Shown: positions 3,553 through 61,169 of the stretch, one piece after another
How the letters are laid out: each line of letters starts with the position of its first letter
Position numbering within the stretch: position 1 is the first letter of the stretch
Source of the DNA: an uncultured Candidatus Saccharibacteria bacterium
GTDB taxonomy: Bacteria > Patescibacteriota > Saccharimonadia > Saccharimonadales > 2-12-FULL-41-12
Length of the DNA stretch: 64,000 bases
Direction: 5' to 3'
Assembly (NCBI GenBank): GCA_947085495.1
Contig: CAMTWJ010000002.1
Location: 38,599-102,598, forward strand
Made by a program: the position numbers and the translations under genes
Notes under the pieces: model-generated
Database searches by the model: none
The model's input: only the letters and a program-made list of their open reading frames with translations
What the model was told of the DNA's origin: nothing

Positions 3553-4305
3553 ATGGCAACATTTTTAACTTCTAAAATACGTCCAACAAAAGGATTCGCA
3601 CATTTTCTGCATATTGCTTTTGTAGTGCTTCTGCCGATTGTCTTATTGGTGCTAGTTCGCCTTAATCTAGATATTTTGGCGCTACTACTAATCTTGCTGA
3701 GTAAGTGGCGTATGTTTGCAGTAAAGGCGCATCACTGGGTTGCGCATATTCGTACCAATGCTGTTGATATCATTGTGGGCTTGAGTGTATTAGCCTTCAT
3801 GAGCAATACAGGTTCATTGCCATGGCAGCTACTGTGGGTAGTTTTGTATGAACTTTGGCTGCTGGTTCTCAAGCCTGGCTCAAATGTATTAATGGTGTCT
3901 TTGCAGGCAGTCGTTGCGCAAACCTTAGGCTTTATATCGATATTCTTGGTATTTGAAGATATTCACTTATCTTTGGTGGTTTTAGCCTACGGGTTTATCG
4001 CCTACTTCTGTGCCCGACATTTTTTGTCTAGCTTTGATGAACCACATGCGCAGATACTTGCCTCTCAGTGGGGTTTCTTTGCAGCAGCATTAATGTGGGT
4101 TCTTGGGCACTGGCTACTGTTTATTGGCCCAATTGCACAGCCTGCGCTTATCTTGTCGGTGCTTGGTTATGGACTTGGTGGCCTTTACTATCTTGAAGAG
4201 ACAGACAAGCTCTCACGTTTAGTTAGAAGGCAAATTTTACTTGTAATGATAACGGTAATTTTGGTAGTGTTGGTTTTTGCAAACTGGGGCGACAAAACCG
4301 TTTAA
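3553..4305 (+). CDS. polytopic membrane protein, function unknown
   Basis: 250 aa with multiple hydrophobic segments. No motif recognised. Confidence 0.55.
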   Translation: MATFLTSKIRPTKGFAHFLHIAFVVLLPIVLLVLVRLNLDILALLLILLSKWRMFAVKAHHWVAHIRTNAVDIIVGLSVLAFMSNTGSLPWQLLWVVLYELWLLVLKPGSNVLMVSLQAVVAQTLGFISIFLVFEDIHLSLVVLAYGFIAYFCARHFLSSFDEPHAQILASQWGFFAAALMWVLGHWLLFIGPIAQPALILSVLGYGLGGLYYLEETDKLSRLVRRQILLVMITVILVVLVFANWGDKTV

Positions 4306-4338
4306 TTCTCAGGTGTCTATAAGTCAGCTCGTAGTATA

Positions 4339-5526
4339 ATGGTTATGACTATGGGTGACCACAACAAGAGTACTGAAGCATTGCCAAAACAAGCTAACCG
4401 AGCTAAGTTAGCAGCCTTGTCACTTCTTATTATTAGCAGTGTGAGCGCTGGGTTTATTGGTGGTTATTTCGGCGCTAATTTTAATAAAGACAATCACTCA
4501 AGTGCCAGCAAAGGCCAAGCGGTTGTATCAAGCGAGAGCGAGCTTATAACTAAAATTGCCAAAGATGTTGGACCAAGTGTAGTGTCGATTAGTGTTACGA
4601 CCAGGACTACACAAGCAAGTTTTTTTGGGACTCGGCCGGTCACACAAGAGAGTGCCGGAACAGGAGTGATAATTGACTCCACTGGAGTAGTTGTTACGAA
4701 TCGACATGTAGTACCCAAAGGCACTACCAGTGTAACAGTGACGTTATCAGACGGGACAGAACTTAAAGACGTAGAAGTACTCGGGCGGACGAGTGACAGC
4801 GATACGTTGGATGTGGCATTTTTGAAAATCAAAGATAAAAAAGGTAAAGAGCTGAAGGCAGCAAAATTGGGTGATTCTTCAAAAGTCCAAGTTGGTGAAA
4901 AAGTAGTGGCCATTGGCAATGCACTAGGAGAATTTCAAAATACGGTAACCTCCGGCATTATCTCGGGCTATGGCCGAAACGTTGAAGCGGGAGACGAGGA
5001 GTCTAGCGAATCATTGCAAAACCTATTCCAGACAGATGCTGCAATTAACCAAGGCAACTCAGGCGGTCCGCTGGTTAACAGTAGCGGGGAAGTGATTGCT
5101 ATTAACACGGCTATTGCAGGGGGTACCGCTCAAAGTATTGGTTTTGCGATCCCGATCAGTGATCTCCAAGGCCTTATAAAGAGCGTATTAAAAGACGGCA
5201 AACTACAACGGCCATACTTGGGAGTTCGATACGTAACACTGACAGATGCCTATGCGGAAGAACGCAAGCTTGATACCAAGCAAGGTGCATACATAACGCC
5301 ATCACAAAGCGAACCCTCAATAGTTTCTGGTAGCCCGGCAGAAAAAGCTGGCTTGCAGGAAAAAGACATTATTACCAAAGTTGGTGACACAGAAATTAAC
5401 AAAGACAATACGCTAACTTCAGTGATTGGGCGTTATTCAGTCGGCGACAAAGTAAAGCTAACCGTAGTGAGAGATGGCAAAACAATTACTGTTGAAGCCA
5501 CTCTCGAAGCTGCTCAAACAGATTAG
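4339..5526 (+). CDS. htrA: HtrA/DegP-family serine protease with C-terminal PDZ domain
   Basis: GTGVIIDSTGVVVTNRHVV (His region) and TDAAINQGNSGGPLVN (Ser region). PDZ-like GSPAEKAGLQEKDIITKVGD. N-terminal TM anchor. The start could also be ATG 4345 or 4351. Confidence 0.9.
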   Translation: MVMTMGDHNKSTEALPKQANRAKLAALSLLIISSVSAGFIGGYFGANFNKDNHSSASKGQAVVSSESELITKIAKDVGPSVVSISVTTRTTQASFFGTRPVTQESAGTGVIIDSTGVVVTNRHVVPKGTTSVTVTLSDGTELKDVEVLGRTSDSDTLDVAFLKIKDKKGKELKAAKLGDSSKVQVGEKVVAIGNALGEFQNTVTSGIISGYGRNVEAGDEESSESLQNLFQTDAAINQGNSGGPLVNSSGEVIAINTAIAGGTAQSIGFAIPISDLQGLIKSVLKDGKLQRPYLGVRYVTLTDAYAEERKLDTKQGAYITPSQSEPSIVSGSPAEKAGLQEKDIITKVGDTEINKDNTLTSVIGRYSVGDKVKLTVVRDGKTITVEATLEAAQTD

Positions 5527-21959: not shown

Positions 21960-22745
21960 ATGAAAGCACCAAGTAAAAAAGTATTACAAGAACAGATTAA
22001 AAAAATAAATATGGCCACCGCAGTAGTCTCTGCAGTTTTGGCAGTTGTGTCAGCAACTTTGCTCGCAACGACCAATGTTAGCCTATGGCTGAGCTATATG
22101 GCTAGAGACCTTTTGGCTCCTGGCGAAAAAGTAGTTTTGGCCCCAGCCTTTAAGGAATTATTTAGTGTTGAAGCTCGCTATCTATTGGCCGGAATTTTTG
22201 TTTTTTCTGCAGTTTTATCAGTTCTGTTGTTTACCAAACTCCGAGCAAACTACGAGGCAACCCTAAAAGCTAAAGTATCTGGCTACAAGTGGGTATTTGC
22301 AGGTCTTACCGCTGCATTTTTGTTTGAACTCGTAAACTTGCTTGCTGGCATTAGCGACCTTGCAACCCTAAAAGTTGTCGGTGGATTAGTGTTTATTGCA
22401 TCACTCCTTTGTTGGATTGCCGAGCGAGAAAACGATGGCGCAACCAAGAAGAAATGGCTCGCTTTTATTGCAGCAATTTTTGCAGGTATTGGCGCCTGGT
22501 TCCCGCTAGCAGGCAGCTTCTTTGGCACTGCTATTTACGGCATGGAACGATTCACCTGGGGTGTATATGCGCTAGCAGGTACGCTGCTCATTAGCTTTAT
22601 CTTGTATGGCTTAAATCAATACTATTACCTCTCTGGCCGAAAAGGCTGGAAAGAGTACTTGTTTATCGAAAGAAACCATCTAGCAATTAACTTTGCTAGC
22701 TTACTTGCCTTTGGCTTAATTGCAATCGCAGCGTTCTACAAGTAA
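21960..22745 (+). CDS. heliorhodopsin-like seven-TM protein lacking the retinal-binding lysine
   Basis: 261 aa, seven TM segments. Gapless by-eye match to heliorhodopsin: YEATLKAKVSGYKWV..GISDL..LLCWIAERE and QYYYLSGRKGWKEYLFIERNH. The TM7 position of the Schiff-base Lys is Leu248. The only Lys in the last helix region is the C-terminal residue. Confidence 0.6.
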   Translation: MKAPSKKVLQEQIKKINMATAVVSAVLAVVSATLLATTNVSLWLSYMARDLLAPGEKVVLAPAFKELFSVEARYLLAGIFVFSAVLSVLLFTKLRANYEATLKAKVSGYKWVFAGLTAAFLFELVNLLAGISDLATLKVVGGLVFIASLLCWIAERENDGATKKKWLAFIAAIFAGIGAWFPLAGSFFGTAIYGMERFTWGVYALAGTLLISFILYGLNQYYYLSGRKGWKEYLFIERNHLAINFASLLAFGLIAIAAFYK

Positions 22746-23483: not shown

Positions 23484-24077
23484 ATGGGCAAGCGGAGGCC
23501 ACAAAAACCAAAAAGACGGGTGCAGGATATTGCCAAGGAGCGAGGCGTATATGCCATTAGAAGAACTTTGGCAGAGGGTTCAGAAGAGGTGTTAGAGCCT
23601 TTGTACGAAATATTGCCGCCGTATCTCGAGGGAGCTAAGGGGCGGATTTTCACCCAGGAGACCCTCGGTGTAACAGTAGTAGGAGCCAGCCGCTTTAAAG
23701 ATAATCACTTTGACAAAGGTCCAGCTACAGCCCAAGTTTTAGAGCAAGTGCCTAGTGCGGATAGTTTCATTAGTGCAAAAATAGGCTCTATAGCTTTGTT
23801 TGGTTCAGGCAGTCGTATGAATAAGCTTGGCTTTTGCCTCCAGAGCACTAGCTTACAGGCAGAGAACGAGGCGCTAAGGGATGTGTATAAAAATCTAGGC
23901 TTTCCTCTGCACGTGCCCTGGTATGAGAAAGAAGGGTTTGTGCCACATTGTAGTGTTGCTATTCTGTACACAGATCAGATAGGGCGATTTTCTAACGATG
24001 ATATACTTGATCGGCTTGATAAGAGCATCGGTATAAGAGAACAAGAAATCGTTCTAGCTCCGGTAGCTCGAAATTGA
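23484..24077 (+). CDS. hypothetical protein
   Basis: 197 aa with a basic N-terminus. No confident motif. Confidence 0.5.
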   Translation: MGKRRPQKPKRRVQDIAKERGVYAIRRTLAEGSEEVLEPLYEILPPYLEGAKGRIFTQETLGVTVVGASRFKDNHFDKGPATAQVLEQVPSADSFISAKIGSIALFGSGSRMNKLGFCLQSTSLQAENEALRDVYKNLGFPLHVPWYEKEGFVPHCSVAILYTDQIGRFSNDDILDRLDKSIGIREQEIVLAPVARN

Positions 24078-24103
24078 CAGTAAACTAAAATATGTGCTAA
24101 CAT
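24074..24103 (+). promoter_or_regulatory. promoter TTGACA-18-TAACAT with TGc extended -10, upstream of the pheA leader
   Basis: TTGACA at 24074-24079 overlaps the stop of the preceding ORF. TGC is at 24095-24097 and TAACAT at 24098-24103. The predicted +1 is about 24110. Confidence 0.55.
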
Positions 24104-24111
24104 CGAAGACA

Positions 24112-24174
24112 ATGAAAAAGAACATGAGCTGGCAAGAGTTTTTCTTTACCGACTTTAAAGAGGCGGCTCGTTAG
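24112..24174 (+). CDS. candidate Phe-rich leader peptide (pheL-like), 20 codons
   Basis: ATG AAA AAG AAC ATG AGC TGG CAA GAG TTT TTC TTT ACC GAC TTT AAA GAG GCG GCT CGT TAG, which translates to MKKNMSWQEFFFTDFKEAAR. It lies directly upstream of a terminator and pheA. Confidence 0.55.
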   Translation: MKKNMSWQEFFFTDFKEAAR

Positions 24175-24198
24175 CTATTGTTTGTGAATAAAAACTAG

Positions 24199-24223
24199 TC
24201 GCCTCGGGAACGGGGCGATTTTT
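24199..24223 (+). terminator. intrinsic terminator (attenuator) between the leader ORF and pheA
   Basis: 8-bp stem TCGCCTCG (24199-24206) paired with CGGGGCGA (24211-24218), including one G:U pair. GGAA loop, followed by TTTTTAATTTT. Confidence 0.7.
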
Positions 24224-24255
24224 AATTTTAAAGGAAGAAATTTTAGGAGAAAATT

Positions 24256-25107
24256 ATGTACAGCACACCAGAAATAATTACAGGACCAGAAGTGAGCTAT
24301 CTTGGGCCGAGAGGAACATATTCAGAAGAAGCAGTCTTGCAGCGGTTTGGTCCGAACGTAGGTCTTAGACCAGAAAAAAGCATCTTTGCCGCAGTTTATA
24401 GTATGCATACTGATGCAGACCATGCGGTTATACCGCTAGAAAACTCTACGACAGGACTCGTAAGAGAATCTCAAGAAGTCTTAGAGATGGAGCGTTACCC
24501 AGAGCTAGAAATTATTGGCGAGGAAATATTAACGATAAATCATGCCCTTTTAACGCAGAGAGATGTGCAGTTAAAAGATATTCGTATTATCTATGGTCAT
24601 GGACAAGCGCTTGCTCAGTGCAAGGAAAGCTTGGCATTAAGTTTCCCTAGTGTCGATCTAGCTTTGGCTGCGAGCAACACAGCGGCAGTAGACAAAGTAA
24701 TACAGCGGCAAGATGCAGCCCTAATTGCTTCTCCTCGAGCTGCTCAGAAGACCGGCTTGAAGGTTGTTGAAAAAAATATGAGTGACCACCTGGGAAATGC
24801 CACCAGATTTGTAATCTTGGGTGCTCACGCTGCAGAGCCAACAGGGAATGACAAAACGTCAATTATCTGTAAGCCTCTCGATAAAGCAGGTGGCCTGCAT
24901 GCCATGATTGGACCTCTAAGCGATCGAGATATATCGATGACCAGTATTCATTCACGGCCAAGTCGAGAGGGTGGGCACGCTATGTATCTGGAGATTGAGG
25001 GGCATGTTGCAGACGAGCCAGTATCGCAGGCTATTGAAGAAATGGAGCGCAGAGCTGCAAGTGTTAAGATACTTGGCTCGTATCCAGTGGCTGAGCTGTT
25101 ACAATAA
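24256..25107 (+). CDS. pheA: prephenate dehydratase with C-terminal ACT domain
   Basis: YLGPRGTYSEEA, IPLENSTTGLV, GHGQALAQC, NATRFVILG, and the ACT-type segment DKTSIICKP..GGLHAMIGPL..SIHSRPS..ILGSYP. Confidence 0.9.
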   Translation: MYSTPEIITGPEVSYLGPRGTYSEEAVLQRFGPNVGLRPEKSIFAAVYSMHTDADHAVIPLENSTTGLVRESQEVLEMERYPELEIIGEEILTINHALLTQRDVQLKDIRIIYGHGQALAQCKESLALSFPSVDLALAASNTAAVDKVIQRQDAALIASPRAAQKTGLKVVEKNMSDHLGNATRFVILGAHAAEPTGNDKTSIICKPLDKAGGLHAMIGPLSDRDISMTSIHSRPSREGGHAMYLEIEGHVADEPVSQAIEEMERRAASVKILGSYPVAELLQ

Positions 25108-25113
25108 GTGTAG

Positions 25114-25899
25114 ATGAGTACTTGGGGAAGACAAACACCACCATATCAGCCTGGCCAAAAGACTCCGTTTAAGGTTAGTCGGACAAAGATTGAGGATTTT
25201 CATAATTGCCCTCGTTGCTTTTGGCTCGATCGGCGGCTGAAGATCACACGCCCTAGCTCGCCACCGTTTAACATCAACAAAGCGATCGACGAACTTTTTA
25301 AAAAAGAGTTTGATGCCTATCGGAAAAAGGACGAGCAGCATCCTTTGCAAAAAGATTTTGGTATAGACGCTAAGCCGTATGCCCATAAAGACCTGGATAA
25401 GTGGAGGGCTAACTTTACTGGAGTCCAAGCGCTGCATGAGCCAACAAACCTGCTGGTTTTTGGAGCAGTTGATGATGTGTGGGTAAACCCTGCAGGGGAA
25501 TTGATTGTAGTGGACTACAAAGCTACGGCGAAAACCGCAGAGATTACAGACCTTGGCCCAGTGGGCGGATGGCAAGACACATACCGTCGACAGATGGAAG
25601 TGTATCAGTGGCTACTTCGCCAAAACGGCTTCAAAGTAAGCAATACGGGATACTTTGTTTACGCCAACGGCGACGCTAGTAAAAAACATTTCAAAAATGT
25701 AGTGGAGTTTCGAACCAACGTTTTTCCGCACAAGGGTGATGATTCCTGGGTGGAGCCAACACTATTAAAAATGAAAGAATGCCTGGAGGGCGACATGCCA
25801 GAAGTCGGGGTGAGTGTAATGGGCGGACCTTGCGAGCATTGTACGTATGCTCGAGCCCGAACAGAATTAACGCTAAAACACTTAAATAAAAAGGTATAA
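25114..25899 (+). CDS. PD-(D/E)XK nuclease family protein, Cas4-like with four Cys
   Basis: N-terminal CPRC, GAVDDVWV..ELIVVDYKAT (D..DxK), QMEVYQWLL, and C-terminal CEHC. Confidence 0.75.
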   Translation: MSTWGRQTPPYQPGQKTPFKVSRTKIEDFHNCPRCFWLDRRLKITRPSSPPFNINKAIDELFKKEFDAYRKKDEQHPLQKDFGIDAKPYAHKDLDKWRANFTGVQALHEPTNLLVFGAVDDVWVNPAGELIVVDYKATAKTAEITDLGPVGGWQDTYRRQMEVYQWLLRQNGFKVSNTGYFVYANGDASKKHFKNVVEFRTNVFPHKGDDSWVEPTLLKMKECLEGDMPEVGVSVMGGPCEHCTYARARTELTLKHLNKKV

Positions 25900-59767: not shown

Positions 59768-60652
59768 ATGAATCAAAACAAACACAAACCGGTTCTTTTA
59801 AGCGAAGTAAAAGACATTTTAAGCCCCGCAAAGGGCGAACGATACTTGGATGTAACTGCAGGCTATGGTGGCCATGCGAGCGCAGTTATTGACGCTATAG
59901 GCAGCCAAGGTGCTGCTGTTCTGGTCGACAGAGACCAAAATGCGATTAGTTATCTAAACGAAATGTTCAAAAATCGTTCGGAAGTGAAAATTGTAAAAAA
60001 CGATTTTCTGTCTGCAAGCAAAGATTTGCAGGCAACAGGTGCAAAGTTTGATCTGATTCTTGCAGATCTTGGAGTATCATCACCGCACCTTGACAATGCC
60101 ATGCGTGGTTTTTCTTTCAAAAGTGAAGGACCATTGGACATGCGAATGGACGAAGATCAAGAAATAACGGCTTCAGATATCGTAAACACTGCTGATCAAG
60201 CAGAACTTGTACGTATCTTGCGGCTGTATGGGGAAGTTAGAAATGCACCCAGAGTTTCACGGTTGATCATAGAACACCGTCCGTTCCATTCCACCACGGA
60301 ATTGGCTAGTGTAGTCGCTAAAACTTCCAAACGCTGGGAGAAGACTCATCCTGCAACCAAAGTGTTCCAGGCGCTGAGGATAGCAGTCAATCAAGAATTG
60401 GAGCAGTTGCAGCAAGCACTTCCAATCTGGATCGATCTGTTAAATGACAATGGTCGTTTAGCTGTGATTTCGTTTCACAGTCTAGAAGATCGTTTGGTCA
60501 AACAAGCGTTTGCAGAGTATGGGGCAAGTGGTTATGACGCAGTTGTGCGTATATTGACCAAGCACCCAATTGAAGGCGACGAATCCGAAATAGTTTTTAA
60601 TCCGCGTGCACGTAGTGCAAAACTACGAGCCGTAGCGAAAATAAAAATATAG
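59768..60652 (+). CDS. rsmH: 16S rRNA (cytosine1402-N4)-methyltransferase
   Basis: HKPVLLSEV, YLDVTAGYGGHA, LADLGVSSPHLD and ISFHSLEDR. Confidence 0.95.
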   Translation: MNQNKHKPVLLSEVKDILSPAKGERYLDVTAGYGGHASAVIDAIGSQGAAVLVDRDQNAISYLNEMFKNRSEVKIVKNDFLSASKDLQATGAKFDLILADLGVSSPHLDNAMRGFSFKSEGPLDMRMDEDQEITASDIVNTADQAELVRILRLYGEVRNAPRVSRLIIEHRPFHSTTELASVVAKTSKRWEKTHPATKVFQALRIAVNQELEQLQQALPIWIDLLNDNGRLAVISFHSLEDRLVKQAFAEYGASGYDAVVRILTKHPIEGDESEIVFNPRARSAKLRAVAKIKI

Positions 60653-60753: not shown

Positions 60754-60784
60754 GCTCTCCTCTAACAAAACATTAGAGGAGAGC
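60754..60784 (+). other. perfect 12-bp inverted repeat (hairpin) between rsmH and ftsL
   Basis: GCTCTCCTCTAA (60754-60765), loop CAAAACA, TTAGAGGAGAGC (60773-60784). No T tract on the plus strand. Confidence 0.8.
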
Positions 60785-60824
60785 ACCAAAACAAATATTA
60801 AACATAACAAAAAACAAAAGAGAT

Positions 60825-61169
60825 ATGACATATTCAAGTTCACTATCGATGGGGCGCAGAAGATTTGCAACCCGACACCAAAACGTTGTTAACTGGGGCG
60901 AACAGACACGGGCTTTAGGGCCTGTGAGCAACACGGTAATATTGGTAGTTCTAAGCTGTTTGTTGGGACTTTTATACCTTACTCAAGTCACAAAAACCAA
61001 TGCCAGCGGCTACAAGGTAGATGGCTACGAAAAACAGTATAGCCAACTACAAAAAGAACATGACGAGTTACAACTATCGTCTGCACGATTGCAGTCACTA
61101 GATCGAGTCGCTGACAGTAAGCCAGCGAAAGAACTCGTTTCTGTGGCACCAAGCGCTACCGTTCGTTAA
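60825..61169 (+). CDS. ftsL: cell division protein FtsL-like (bitopic, coiled coil)
   Basis: 114 aa with a single TM segment (VILVVLSCLLGLLYLTQV) followed by a short coiled coil. Positioned between rsmH and ftsI. Confidence 0.7.
   Translation: MTYSSSLSMGRRRFATRHQNVVNWGEQTRALGPVSNTVILVVLSCLLGLLYLTQVTKTNASGYKVDGYEKQYSQLQKEHDELQLSSARLQSLDRVADSKPAKELVSVAPSATVR

Follow-up and report, generated by a model that had tools for sequence, protein, structure and literature searches.

The window analyzed here, a stretch of 64,000 nucleotides (nt) from an uncultured Candidatus Saccharibacteria bacterium (contig CAMTWJ010000002.1; GC content ~44%), carries the gene pheA (24256-25107) on its + strand and, in the gap of 178 bases upstream of this gene, a series of short elements that together resemble a phenylalanine (Phe) leader-peptide attenuator. 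The product of pheA, the gene that would be regulated, is a monofunctional prephenate dehydratase (PDT) of 283 amino acids with a C-terminal ACT domain (E 5e-46 against PF00800), and a Shine-Dalgarno sequence, AGGAG (24245-24249), can be read directly 6 nt before its ATG. Two genes upstream, rsmE and an open reading frame (ORF) of 197 amino acids, are co-directional with pheA and end at 24077. All features of the gap described below lie on the + strand.

The gap opens with a promoter, whose -35 hexamer TTGACA (24074-24079) overlaps the TGA stop codon (24075-24077) of the 197-amino-acid ORF. After a spacer of 18 nt it is followed by an extended -10 box, TGcTAACAT (24095-24103), which ends 8 nt before the ATG (24112) of a short leader ORF. 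This ORF (24112-24174) has 20 codons plus a TAG stop codon (24172-24174) and encodes MKKNMSWQEFFFTDFKEAAR. Direct reading reveals four Phe codons, three of them consecutive (TTT TTC TTT, codons 10-12, 24139-24147) and a fourth at codon 15 (24154-24156). Downstream of the ORF is a GC-rich hairpin (24199-24206 with 24211-24218) closed by a GGAA loop (24207-24210) and followed by a U-tract, TTTTTAATTTT (24219-24229), which was seen both by direct reading and in a terminator scan and is the predicted site of premature termination. In that scan the stem extends to 10 pairs (24197-24220). The earlier note on this DNA, made from its letters alone, had listed promoter, leader ORF, hairpin with U-tract and an alternative helix that consumes the 5' arm of the terminator. 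Each of these features was recovered at the coordinates given here, the stem of the hairpin being even longer than had been claimed.

The alternative pairings can be described with four regions. Region 1 (24136-24153) consists of the consecutive Phe codons plus ACCGAC (Thr-Asp), region 2 is GAGGCGGCT (24160-24168, codons 17-19 of the leader ORF), region 3 is AGTCGCCTCG (24197-24206), the 5' arm of the terminator, and region 4 is CGGGGCGATT (24211-24220), its 3' arm. Region 2 is complementary to AGTCGCCTC (24197-24205), with 8 Watson-Crick pairs plus one G:U pair, so that region 3 can serve either as terminator arm or as antiterminator partner. Region 2 itself has a second potential partner, since in the minimum-energy fold 24136-24148 pairs with 24156-24169, a segment that takes in region 2. 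This helix of regions 1 and 2, which the earlier note did not contain, would make the element a full three-helix set, with 1:2 as anti-antiterminator, 2:3 as antiterminator and 3:4 as terminator. Computed stabilities are -12.8 kcal/mol for the 1:2 hairpin, -17.8 kcal/mol for the antiterminator before region 4 exists and -16.4 kcal/mol for the terminator.

These structures stand out from chance expectation. The leader folds at -39.8 kcal/mol (z = -3.17), a value matched by 0 of 200 shuffles, and the duplex of regions 2 and 3 (-16.6) is equalled or bettered by only 0.4% of 500 shuffles. In a scan of 10 kb of the + strand (20-30 kb), the pheA gap contained both the best of the promoter-like sites (10/12 matches and a TG extension) and the strongest of the terminator-like ones (10 pairs). 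Moreover, among the short ORFs with an FFF run that the 64-kb window contains, the pheA leader ORF alone occupies an intergenic gap and is followed by a terminator. From the U-tract to the ATG of pheA there are only ~26 nt, Shine-Dalgarno sequence included, which leaves no room for a separate pheA promoter. Consequently, every pheA transcript must cross the terminator.

A 5' leader with a competing terminator and antiterminator and an amino-acid gene behind it is also what T-box elements present, and a tRNA- or ligand-sensing RNA (T-box or riboswitch) in place of a ribosome-sensing one has to be weighed. However, neither the window nor seven related loci contain a match to any Rfam family at its gathering score, and in 23900-24400 relaxing the threshold to E 10 still yielded no leader family or other relevant match. 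Upstream of the terminator the RNA is only ~85 nt long and is filled by a conserved ORF whose conserved part is the Phe codon run. The leader as a whole, ~110 nt and mostly coding, contrasts with the specifier loop, T-box sequence and stem I-III architecture of ~200 nt or more that define T-boxes. We therefore regard direct sensing of tRNA or ligand as hardly credible here.

Comparative evidence was sought among proteins and genomes. Only two close relatives of the window PDT were found among 5.8 billion proteins, at loci L036 (58% identity) and L037 (56%), both of which are syntenic with the window. Although they were found by protein homology alone, both keep a leader ORF with FFFTD, a stop codon adjoining region 2, complementarity between regions 2 and 3, and a terminator. 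The leader peptides are MKKYTSSKGFFFTDFK in L036 and M(IFDMQIV)MSKGFFFTD in L037, and both loci present a GGCGG-containing region 2 followed by a terminator of the form CCGCC-loop-GGCGG-U6. Between window and L036, housekeeping proteins are 73-93% identical, yet sequence conservation of the leader is limited to one block of 21 nt (TTTTTCTTTACCGACTTTAAA). The terminator and region 2 of the leader have changed together.

Further members were recovered with DNA patterns. Two broad pattern scans each listed at least 120 matches, nearly all of them chance hits in unrelated, often GC-rich genomes, and none of the ~230 chance matches listed had the ORF-plus-terminator architecture. Explicit filters retrieved six loci from these scans (L099, L112, L130, L145, L148 and L198, the last labelled Patescibacteria). 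The PDT of L145 is only 23% identical to that of the window, and two relatives found for it by protein homology, at 76% and 62% identity on contigs L279 and L280, are preceded by leaders encoding MSKILRNNAQFFFTDTIVAVCFA and MSKAFRNNVNFFFTDTFVAVRFA, respectively, with the same helices. A final, highly specific pattern, for which ~0.001 chance matches were estimated, hit 3 of 185,579 species-representative genomes; all three are labelled Candidatus Saccharibacteria and one was new (L283). The family therefore comprises 12 loci including the window. Every locus that bears an organism name is from Saccharibacteria or Patescibacteria, and these are the only contexts in which the pattern scans found further members.

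Other searches delimit this family. A scan with an alignment of three PDTs returned only the contig of L036 again. The first genome scan, with the window PDT alone, found distant PDTs only (at most 45% identity), including three Saccharibacteria loci (L001, L004 and L012) that encode fusions of chorismate mutase (CM) and PDT with no FFF leader upstream, so the device is not universal in the phylum. Two candidates were set aside as doubtful, L041 and L104. The latter, from a groundwater metagenome, has a short ORF, MVNKRNYFFSFFFTDLIGRRV, with FFFTD (~80-145, + strand) that precedes a gene for a 360-amino-acid membrane protein and has no clear terminator; it may be a family member that has diverged or decayed, or may match by chance.

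The recurrence of the element bears on the simplest alternative, coincidence, in which the hairpin is the terminator of the upstream operon (rsmE and the 197-amino-acid ORF), the FFF ORF is a chance frame, and pheA is expressed constitutively or by read-through. Since the co-directional upstream genes end at 24077, a terminator is indeed expected somewhere downstream of them, and short FFF ORFs also arise by chance inside genes on the antisense strand. However, 11 other loci, whose upstream genes differ, repeat the ORF, the Phe run, the spacing of the promoter and both helices, and some of these loci have another gene of the same pathway downstream. In L279 and L280 the gene upstream of the leader is on the opposite strand, and the hairpin cannot be that gene's terminator. 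Given in addition the lack of space for a pheA promoter after the U-tract, we consider coincidence very improbable.

The anatomy of the leaders is shared throughout the family. The FFF run is placed at codons 8-11 in all members, and FFFTD is invariant in 12/12 loci, with synonymous codon changes to ACT in L037 and GAT in L198. ACC GAC directly follows the FFF codons; its ACCG pairs with CGGU of region 2, as does the ACCG of region 3 (AACCGCC). Region 4 is nearly a copy of region 2 (GGCGGUU), and region 3 resembles region 1. The codons TTT TTC TTT are kept in 11/12 loci (TTC TTC TTT in L198), and the central C, which breaks a run of nine U, may possibly reflect avoidance of polymerase slippage or of a terminator-like U-tract.

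Geometry is conserved as well. Counted from the first base of the third Phe codon, the GGCG core of region 2 begins after 17 nt in the window and after 17-19 nt in 11/12 loci, a distance that should place it just past the end of the footprint of a stalled ribosome. Relative to the stop codon, the end of region 2 falls between -16 and +17 nt in the nine loci analyzed for this feature, and a ribosome at the stop codon would have region 2 inside its footprint or adjoining it.

Phylogenetic covariation provides an additional line of evidence. A plain MAFFT alignment of whole leaders misaligned their unequal terminators, and pairs were therefore counted in an anchor-based concatenated alignment. 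In the nine-locus alignment the terminator was 100% paired, with changes on both sides in 3 of its 7 pairs. The antiterminator was 88.9% paired over 12 loci, with 4 of 9 pairs changed on both sides, and its covariation score of 0.251 (0.100 when shuffled) was reached by 0 of 500 shuffles; sliding the partner columns cut pairing to 24-57%. Two pairs that belong to the antiterminator only, between the 5' flank of region 2 and the first bases of the terminator loop, are unconstrained by any search pattern. Their pairing was 70.8%, compared with 42.3% in shuffles (0 of 500), and three pair types occur at each. Duplexes of regions 2 and 3 range from -11 to -21 kcal/mol, and each beats at least 98% of its shuffles. 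The minimum-energy folds of the window and most relatives contain the 1:2 helix, whose base (ACCG:CGGU) is 90.7% paired and nearly invariant, with 13 of 500 shuffles reaching its score. The comparison of upstream regions that the earlier note had called for thus reveals that relatives keep the FFF run, a stop codon near region 2 and the antiterminator and terminator helices, both with compensatory changes.

The invariance of FFFTD in 12 loci, with its two synonymous codon changes, also fits a different reading, in which the FFFTD micropeptide is functional, or the terminated leader RNA of ~110 nt is a trans-acting small RNA, and regulation of pheA is secondary. Attenuator-derived RNAs can act in trans in Sinorhizobium (PMC6614838). 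However, the peptides are not conserved outside FFFTD, and even the close relatives L145, L279 and L280 differ at several codons. Both synonymous changes keep G:U pairing with region 2, so selection at the RNA level explains them equally well, and attenuation directly explains the link to Phe genes. A primary role of peptide or small RNA is, in our judgment, very unlikely.

The promoters of the family share a characteristic spacing. In 12/12 loci the -10 box is preceded, 16-18 nt upstream, by a TTGnnn hexamer, and from the end of the box to the leader start codon there are 6-8 nt (10 nt in L130). Eight of the 11 loci scanned match at least 8 of 12 promoter positions, and only 1.8% of random window positions have such a site at 5-8 nt. 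The promoter of L112 (TTGACC-18-TTAAAT) was missed by the rule of the scan and was read by eye; that of L283 is TTGACC-17-TATAGT-7-ATG. In the window and the other family loci, the last 16 nt before the leader start codon contain no Shine-Dalgarno motif. With a -10 box only 8 nt before the ATG, this suggests that the leader mRNA is leaderless or nearly so, and transcripts would probably start at or within ~2 nt of the AUG at 24112.

The genes behind the leaders provide the strongest functional argument; their enrichment for the Phe branch and Phe-tRNA synthetase was imposed by no search step. PDT follows the leader in 7 of the 12 loci, chorismate mutase in one (L112), DAHP synthase in one (L283), an alaX-like gene and pheS in two (L130 and L198) and a gene without a Pfam match in one (L148). 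One of the seven PDTs was assigned by a match at E 1e-12. In L283, a Saccharibacteria metagenome-assembled genome (MAG; palsa_1333), the segment 2755-6521 contains a family I DAHP synthase behind the leader and, divergently, a chorismate-binding enzyme (586 amino acids) and a glutamine amidotransferase, so that some Saccharibacteria at least retain chorismate metabolism. In L130 (2218-3861) the leader is followed by a small ORF of 127 amino acids, an AlaX-like gene and pheS. Locus L198 (reverse strand) has the same beginning, its small ORF being 60 amino acids long and rich in Lys and Arg. The AlaX-like gene of both loci carries an alanyl/threonyl-tRNA synthetase editing domain and would be co-regulated with Phe-tRNA synthetase by Phe supply.

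Several side observations concern these genes. The chorismate mutase of L112 (reverse-strand coordinates 4085-4414) is an AroQ enzyme, its nearest matches being the intracellular enzyme of Mycobacterium tuberculosis (PDB 2qbv, E 7e-21) and that of Corynebacterium glutamicum (5hub, E 1e-15). Both of these enzymes are from Actinobacteria, the usual hosts of cultured Saccharibacteria, and the gene may possibly have been acquired from a host by gene transfer. The gene trpS follows both this chorismate mutase and the DAHP synthase of L283. Finally, L148 encodes a protein of 195 amino acids (548-1135) with no Pfam match directly behind a GC-rich Phe leader, MAQFAYTFFFFTDTKRAAL, which makes it a candidate for an unrecognized Phe-related function.

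Overall, these patterns are best accounted for if the element before pheA is a classical ribosome-mediated Phe leader-peptide transcription attenuator, a reading to which we assign a probability of roughly 0.85. This had been the proposal of the earlier note, and it is supported by orthologues found through protein homology, by nine further loci and by compensatory changes. Our analysis was computational and covered the sequence elements and the three helices that exclude each other, with their geometry, their conservation and their covariation, as well as the link to Phe of the genes behind related leaders; from these we infer where transcription starts, that it terminates at the U-tract, a leaderless initiation and a response to Phe.

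The proposed mechanism would operate as follows. The sigma-70-type promoter (24074-24103) would start the transcript at or within ~2 nt of the AUG at 24112, and the leader ORF would be translated from a leaderless mRNA. When Phe-tRNA is plentiful, the ribosome would pass F10-F12 and F15 and occupy region 2 (24160-24168) and the UAG while the polymerase makes regions 3 and 4, so that the terminator (24197-24220 plus U-tract) could form and transcription would stop before pheA. When Phe-tRNA is scarce, the ribosome would stall with a Phe codon in its A site, covering region 1 through ACCGAC to ~24158-24160 and leaving region 2 just free. Region 2 would then pair with region 3 as soon as the latter is made (a 9-bp stem of about -17.8 kcal/mol), the terminator would not form, and the polymerase would read through into pheA. 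If the leader is not translated at all, region 1 would pair with region 2 and the terminator would form, making the off state the default.

Ribosome stalling could alternatively act mainly on translation or mRNA stability, by opening a structure that hides the ribosome-binding site of pheA, with termination having no main role. Leaderless short ORFs acting in this manner are documented among mycobacterial poly-Cys ORFs (bioRxiv 10.1101/834739), and the minimum-energy fold of the window has a weak helix at the A/U-rich stretch around the Shine-Dalgarno sequence of pheA. However, every family member has a GC-rich stem directly followed by 4-7 U, the signature of an intrinsic terminator. Furthermore, the alternative helix competes with the terminator arm and not with the Shine-Dalgarno sequence, which lies outside the conserved helices. 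Control mainly at the level of translation or stability is therefore unlikely in our view, and transcription attenuation remains the preferred reading.

A number of observations weigh against transcription attenuation as formulated above, or temper the evidence for it. Eight of the 12 loci were found by patterns that require FFFTD codons and, in the filters, GGCGG/CCGCC cores, and the alignment used for pair counts was anchored by hand on the GGCG/CGCC cores and so leans towards structure. The 1:2 helix is mostly invariant, which means that covariation backs it weakly; its presence is compatible with the data rather than proven. Region 2 of L037 is located 9-17 nt beyond the stop codon, where a terminating ribosome would cover it only in part. 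When region 1 is masked as by a ribosome footprint, the terminator stays the minimum-energy structure at equilibrium in 8/9 loci, window included. Antitermination must consequently be kinetic, with the 2:3 helix forming before region 4 exists, as in E. coli trp. Leaderless initiation is suggested solely by promoter spacing and the missing Shine-Dalgarno motif; for a transcript starting at the leader start codon, as in the ilvL type of Corynebacterium, the basis here is the conserved distance from promoter to start. To our knowledge, transcription-translation coupling has not been studied in Saccharibacteria.

Known attenuators provide a framework for comparison. The pheL-pheA system of E. coli, to whose logic the earlier note had likened the element, shares with it a run of Phe codons in a short ORF, an intrinsic terminator upstream of pheA, competition of an antiterminator for the terminator 5' arm, a pause or anti-antiterminator helix, predicted here, that involves the regulatory codons, and prephenate dehydratase as the regulated activity (PMC3082878, PMC11802643). 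However, sequence or structure homology is not detectable (no Rfam match), and the two differ in several respects. E. coli pheL has its own Shine-Dalgarno sequence (PMC3082878), whereas the window leader lacks one and is apparently leaderless; the conserved peptide core is FFFTD here, whereas enterobacterial pheL ends with UUC CCC UGA; and pheA is a monofunctional PDT-ACT protein here and a CM-PDT fusion in E. coli. The second likeness drawn in the note was with E. coli pheM-pheST. L130 and L198, which place a Phe leader before an operon that runs into pheS, mirror the known attenuation of Phe-tRNA synthetase genes through Phe codons (PMC11802643, PMC1262725). Note however that in these loci a small ORF and the AlaX-like editing-domain gene are inserted between leader and pheS. 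Outside proteobacteria, the pheL candidates reported are few (Bacteroides, Desulfobacterium; PMC3082878), and a survey of Actinobacteria found no pheA or Phe attenuator (PMC1262725).

The closest architectural parallels are those of C. glutamicum. There, the ilvBNC attenuator is described as having a leaderless leader-peptide mRNA and three hairpins (anti-antiterminator, antiterminator and terminator; PMC11857589), and the aroR leader, with Phe-Tyr-Phe, controls DAHP synthase (aroF) on Phe limitation (PMC11802643). Among the attenuators of this organism (ilvL-ilvBNC, trpL and aroR-aroF), ilvBNC parallels the probable leaderless three-hairpin architecture of the family, and aroR the Phe leader before DAHP synthase in L283. 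Phylum, leader peptides and sequences are different, and we consider detectable homology unlikely. The mycobacterial leaderless poly-Cys short ORFs ('Cys ribulon') likewise place a run of codons for one amino acid before several operons of its metabolism, in a ribosome-mediated regulon (bioRxiv 10.1101/834739). These ORFs unmask a downstream ribosome-binding site, whereas all members of the FFFTD family carry an intrinsic terminator, which points to control of transcription. The earlier note knew of no such device in CPR-like genomes, and our literature search found nothing relevant on leader-peptide attenuation, leaderless mRNAs or prephenate dehydratase in Saccharibacteria or other candidate phyla radiation (CPR) bacteria. 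The mechanism itself is textbook. What is new is the lineage, a small family specific to Saccharibacteria/Patescibacteria, and the gain is one of distribution and physiology, not of principle.

The neighborhood of pheA deserves separate description. The gene order rsmE / pheA / PD-(D/E)XK nuclease / serS / hpf / secA is common to the window and a MAG labelled Candidatus Saccharibacteria, and genes for a heliorhodopsin and a class I-type lysyl-tRNA synthetase are among the neighbors of pheA in the window. Both gene content and synteny assign the window to Saccharibacteria. The claim that pheA is an isolated aromatic-pathway gene stands for the segment at 15-34 kb of the window (~9 kb on either side of pheA), the stretch over which it was judged; no copy of pheST was found within the 64-kb window. 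The heliorhodopsin gene (21960-22745, + strand; PF18761, E 1e-24) is three genes upstream of pheA and is kept in the syntenic loci L036 (84% identity) and L037. Across 23484-25899, comparison with L036 gives 58% identity for PheA, 38% for the upstream 197-amino-acid hypothetical protein and 63% for the downstream PD-(D/E)XK nuclease, so this block is far more diverged than the flanking housekeeping genes (73-93%) and is fast-evolving or under relaxed constraint. The 197-amino-acid ORF is absent from L037. Elsewhere in the window, at ~60755-60785 between + strand ORFs at 59768-60652 and 60825-61169, there is an inverted repeat of 13 bp without mismatches, whose - strand reads GCTCTCCTCTAAT(gtttt)GTTAGAGGAGAGC. 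It folds at -21.3 kcal/mol, the most stable hairpin found in the window, and only on the - strand does TTTT come after it.

The usual description of Saccharibacteria and other CPR bacteria is that amino-acid biosynthesis and most regulation have been lost. A conserved Phe attenuator would indicate that some lineages at least keep and actively regulate the Phe branch (PDT, chorismate mutase, DAHP synthase and a Phe-tRNA synthetase operon), and that charging of tRNA may be sensed in these tiny cells through coupled transcription and translation, apparently on leaderless mRNAs. FFFTD together with the GGCGG/CCGCC helices constitutes a signature for finding Phe-related genes in Saccharibacteria-type genomes, and it has already pointed to unassigned genes, namely that for the 195-amino-acid protein of L148 and the small ORFs of L130 (127 amino acids) and L198 (60 amino acids) that precede the alaX-like gene. 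We also entertain, as a tentative and rather doubtful extension, that FFFTD leaders define a 'Phe ribulon' at the level of the phylum, in which one leaderless sensor ORF was copied before DAHP synthase, chorismate mutase, PDT and the alaX-like/pheS operon. Selection on Thr-Asp would then act not only through RNA pairing but also on the peptide or on decoding, where it might, for example, provide a context in which stalling is sharper. If so, some episymbionts with reduced genomes would still make phenylalanine, or finish it from chorismate or prephenate of the host, under regulation by ribosome stalling.

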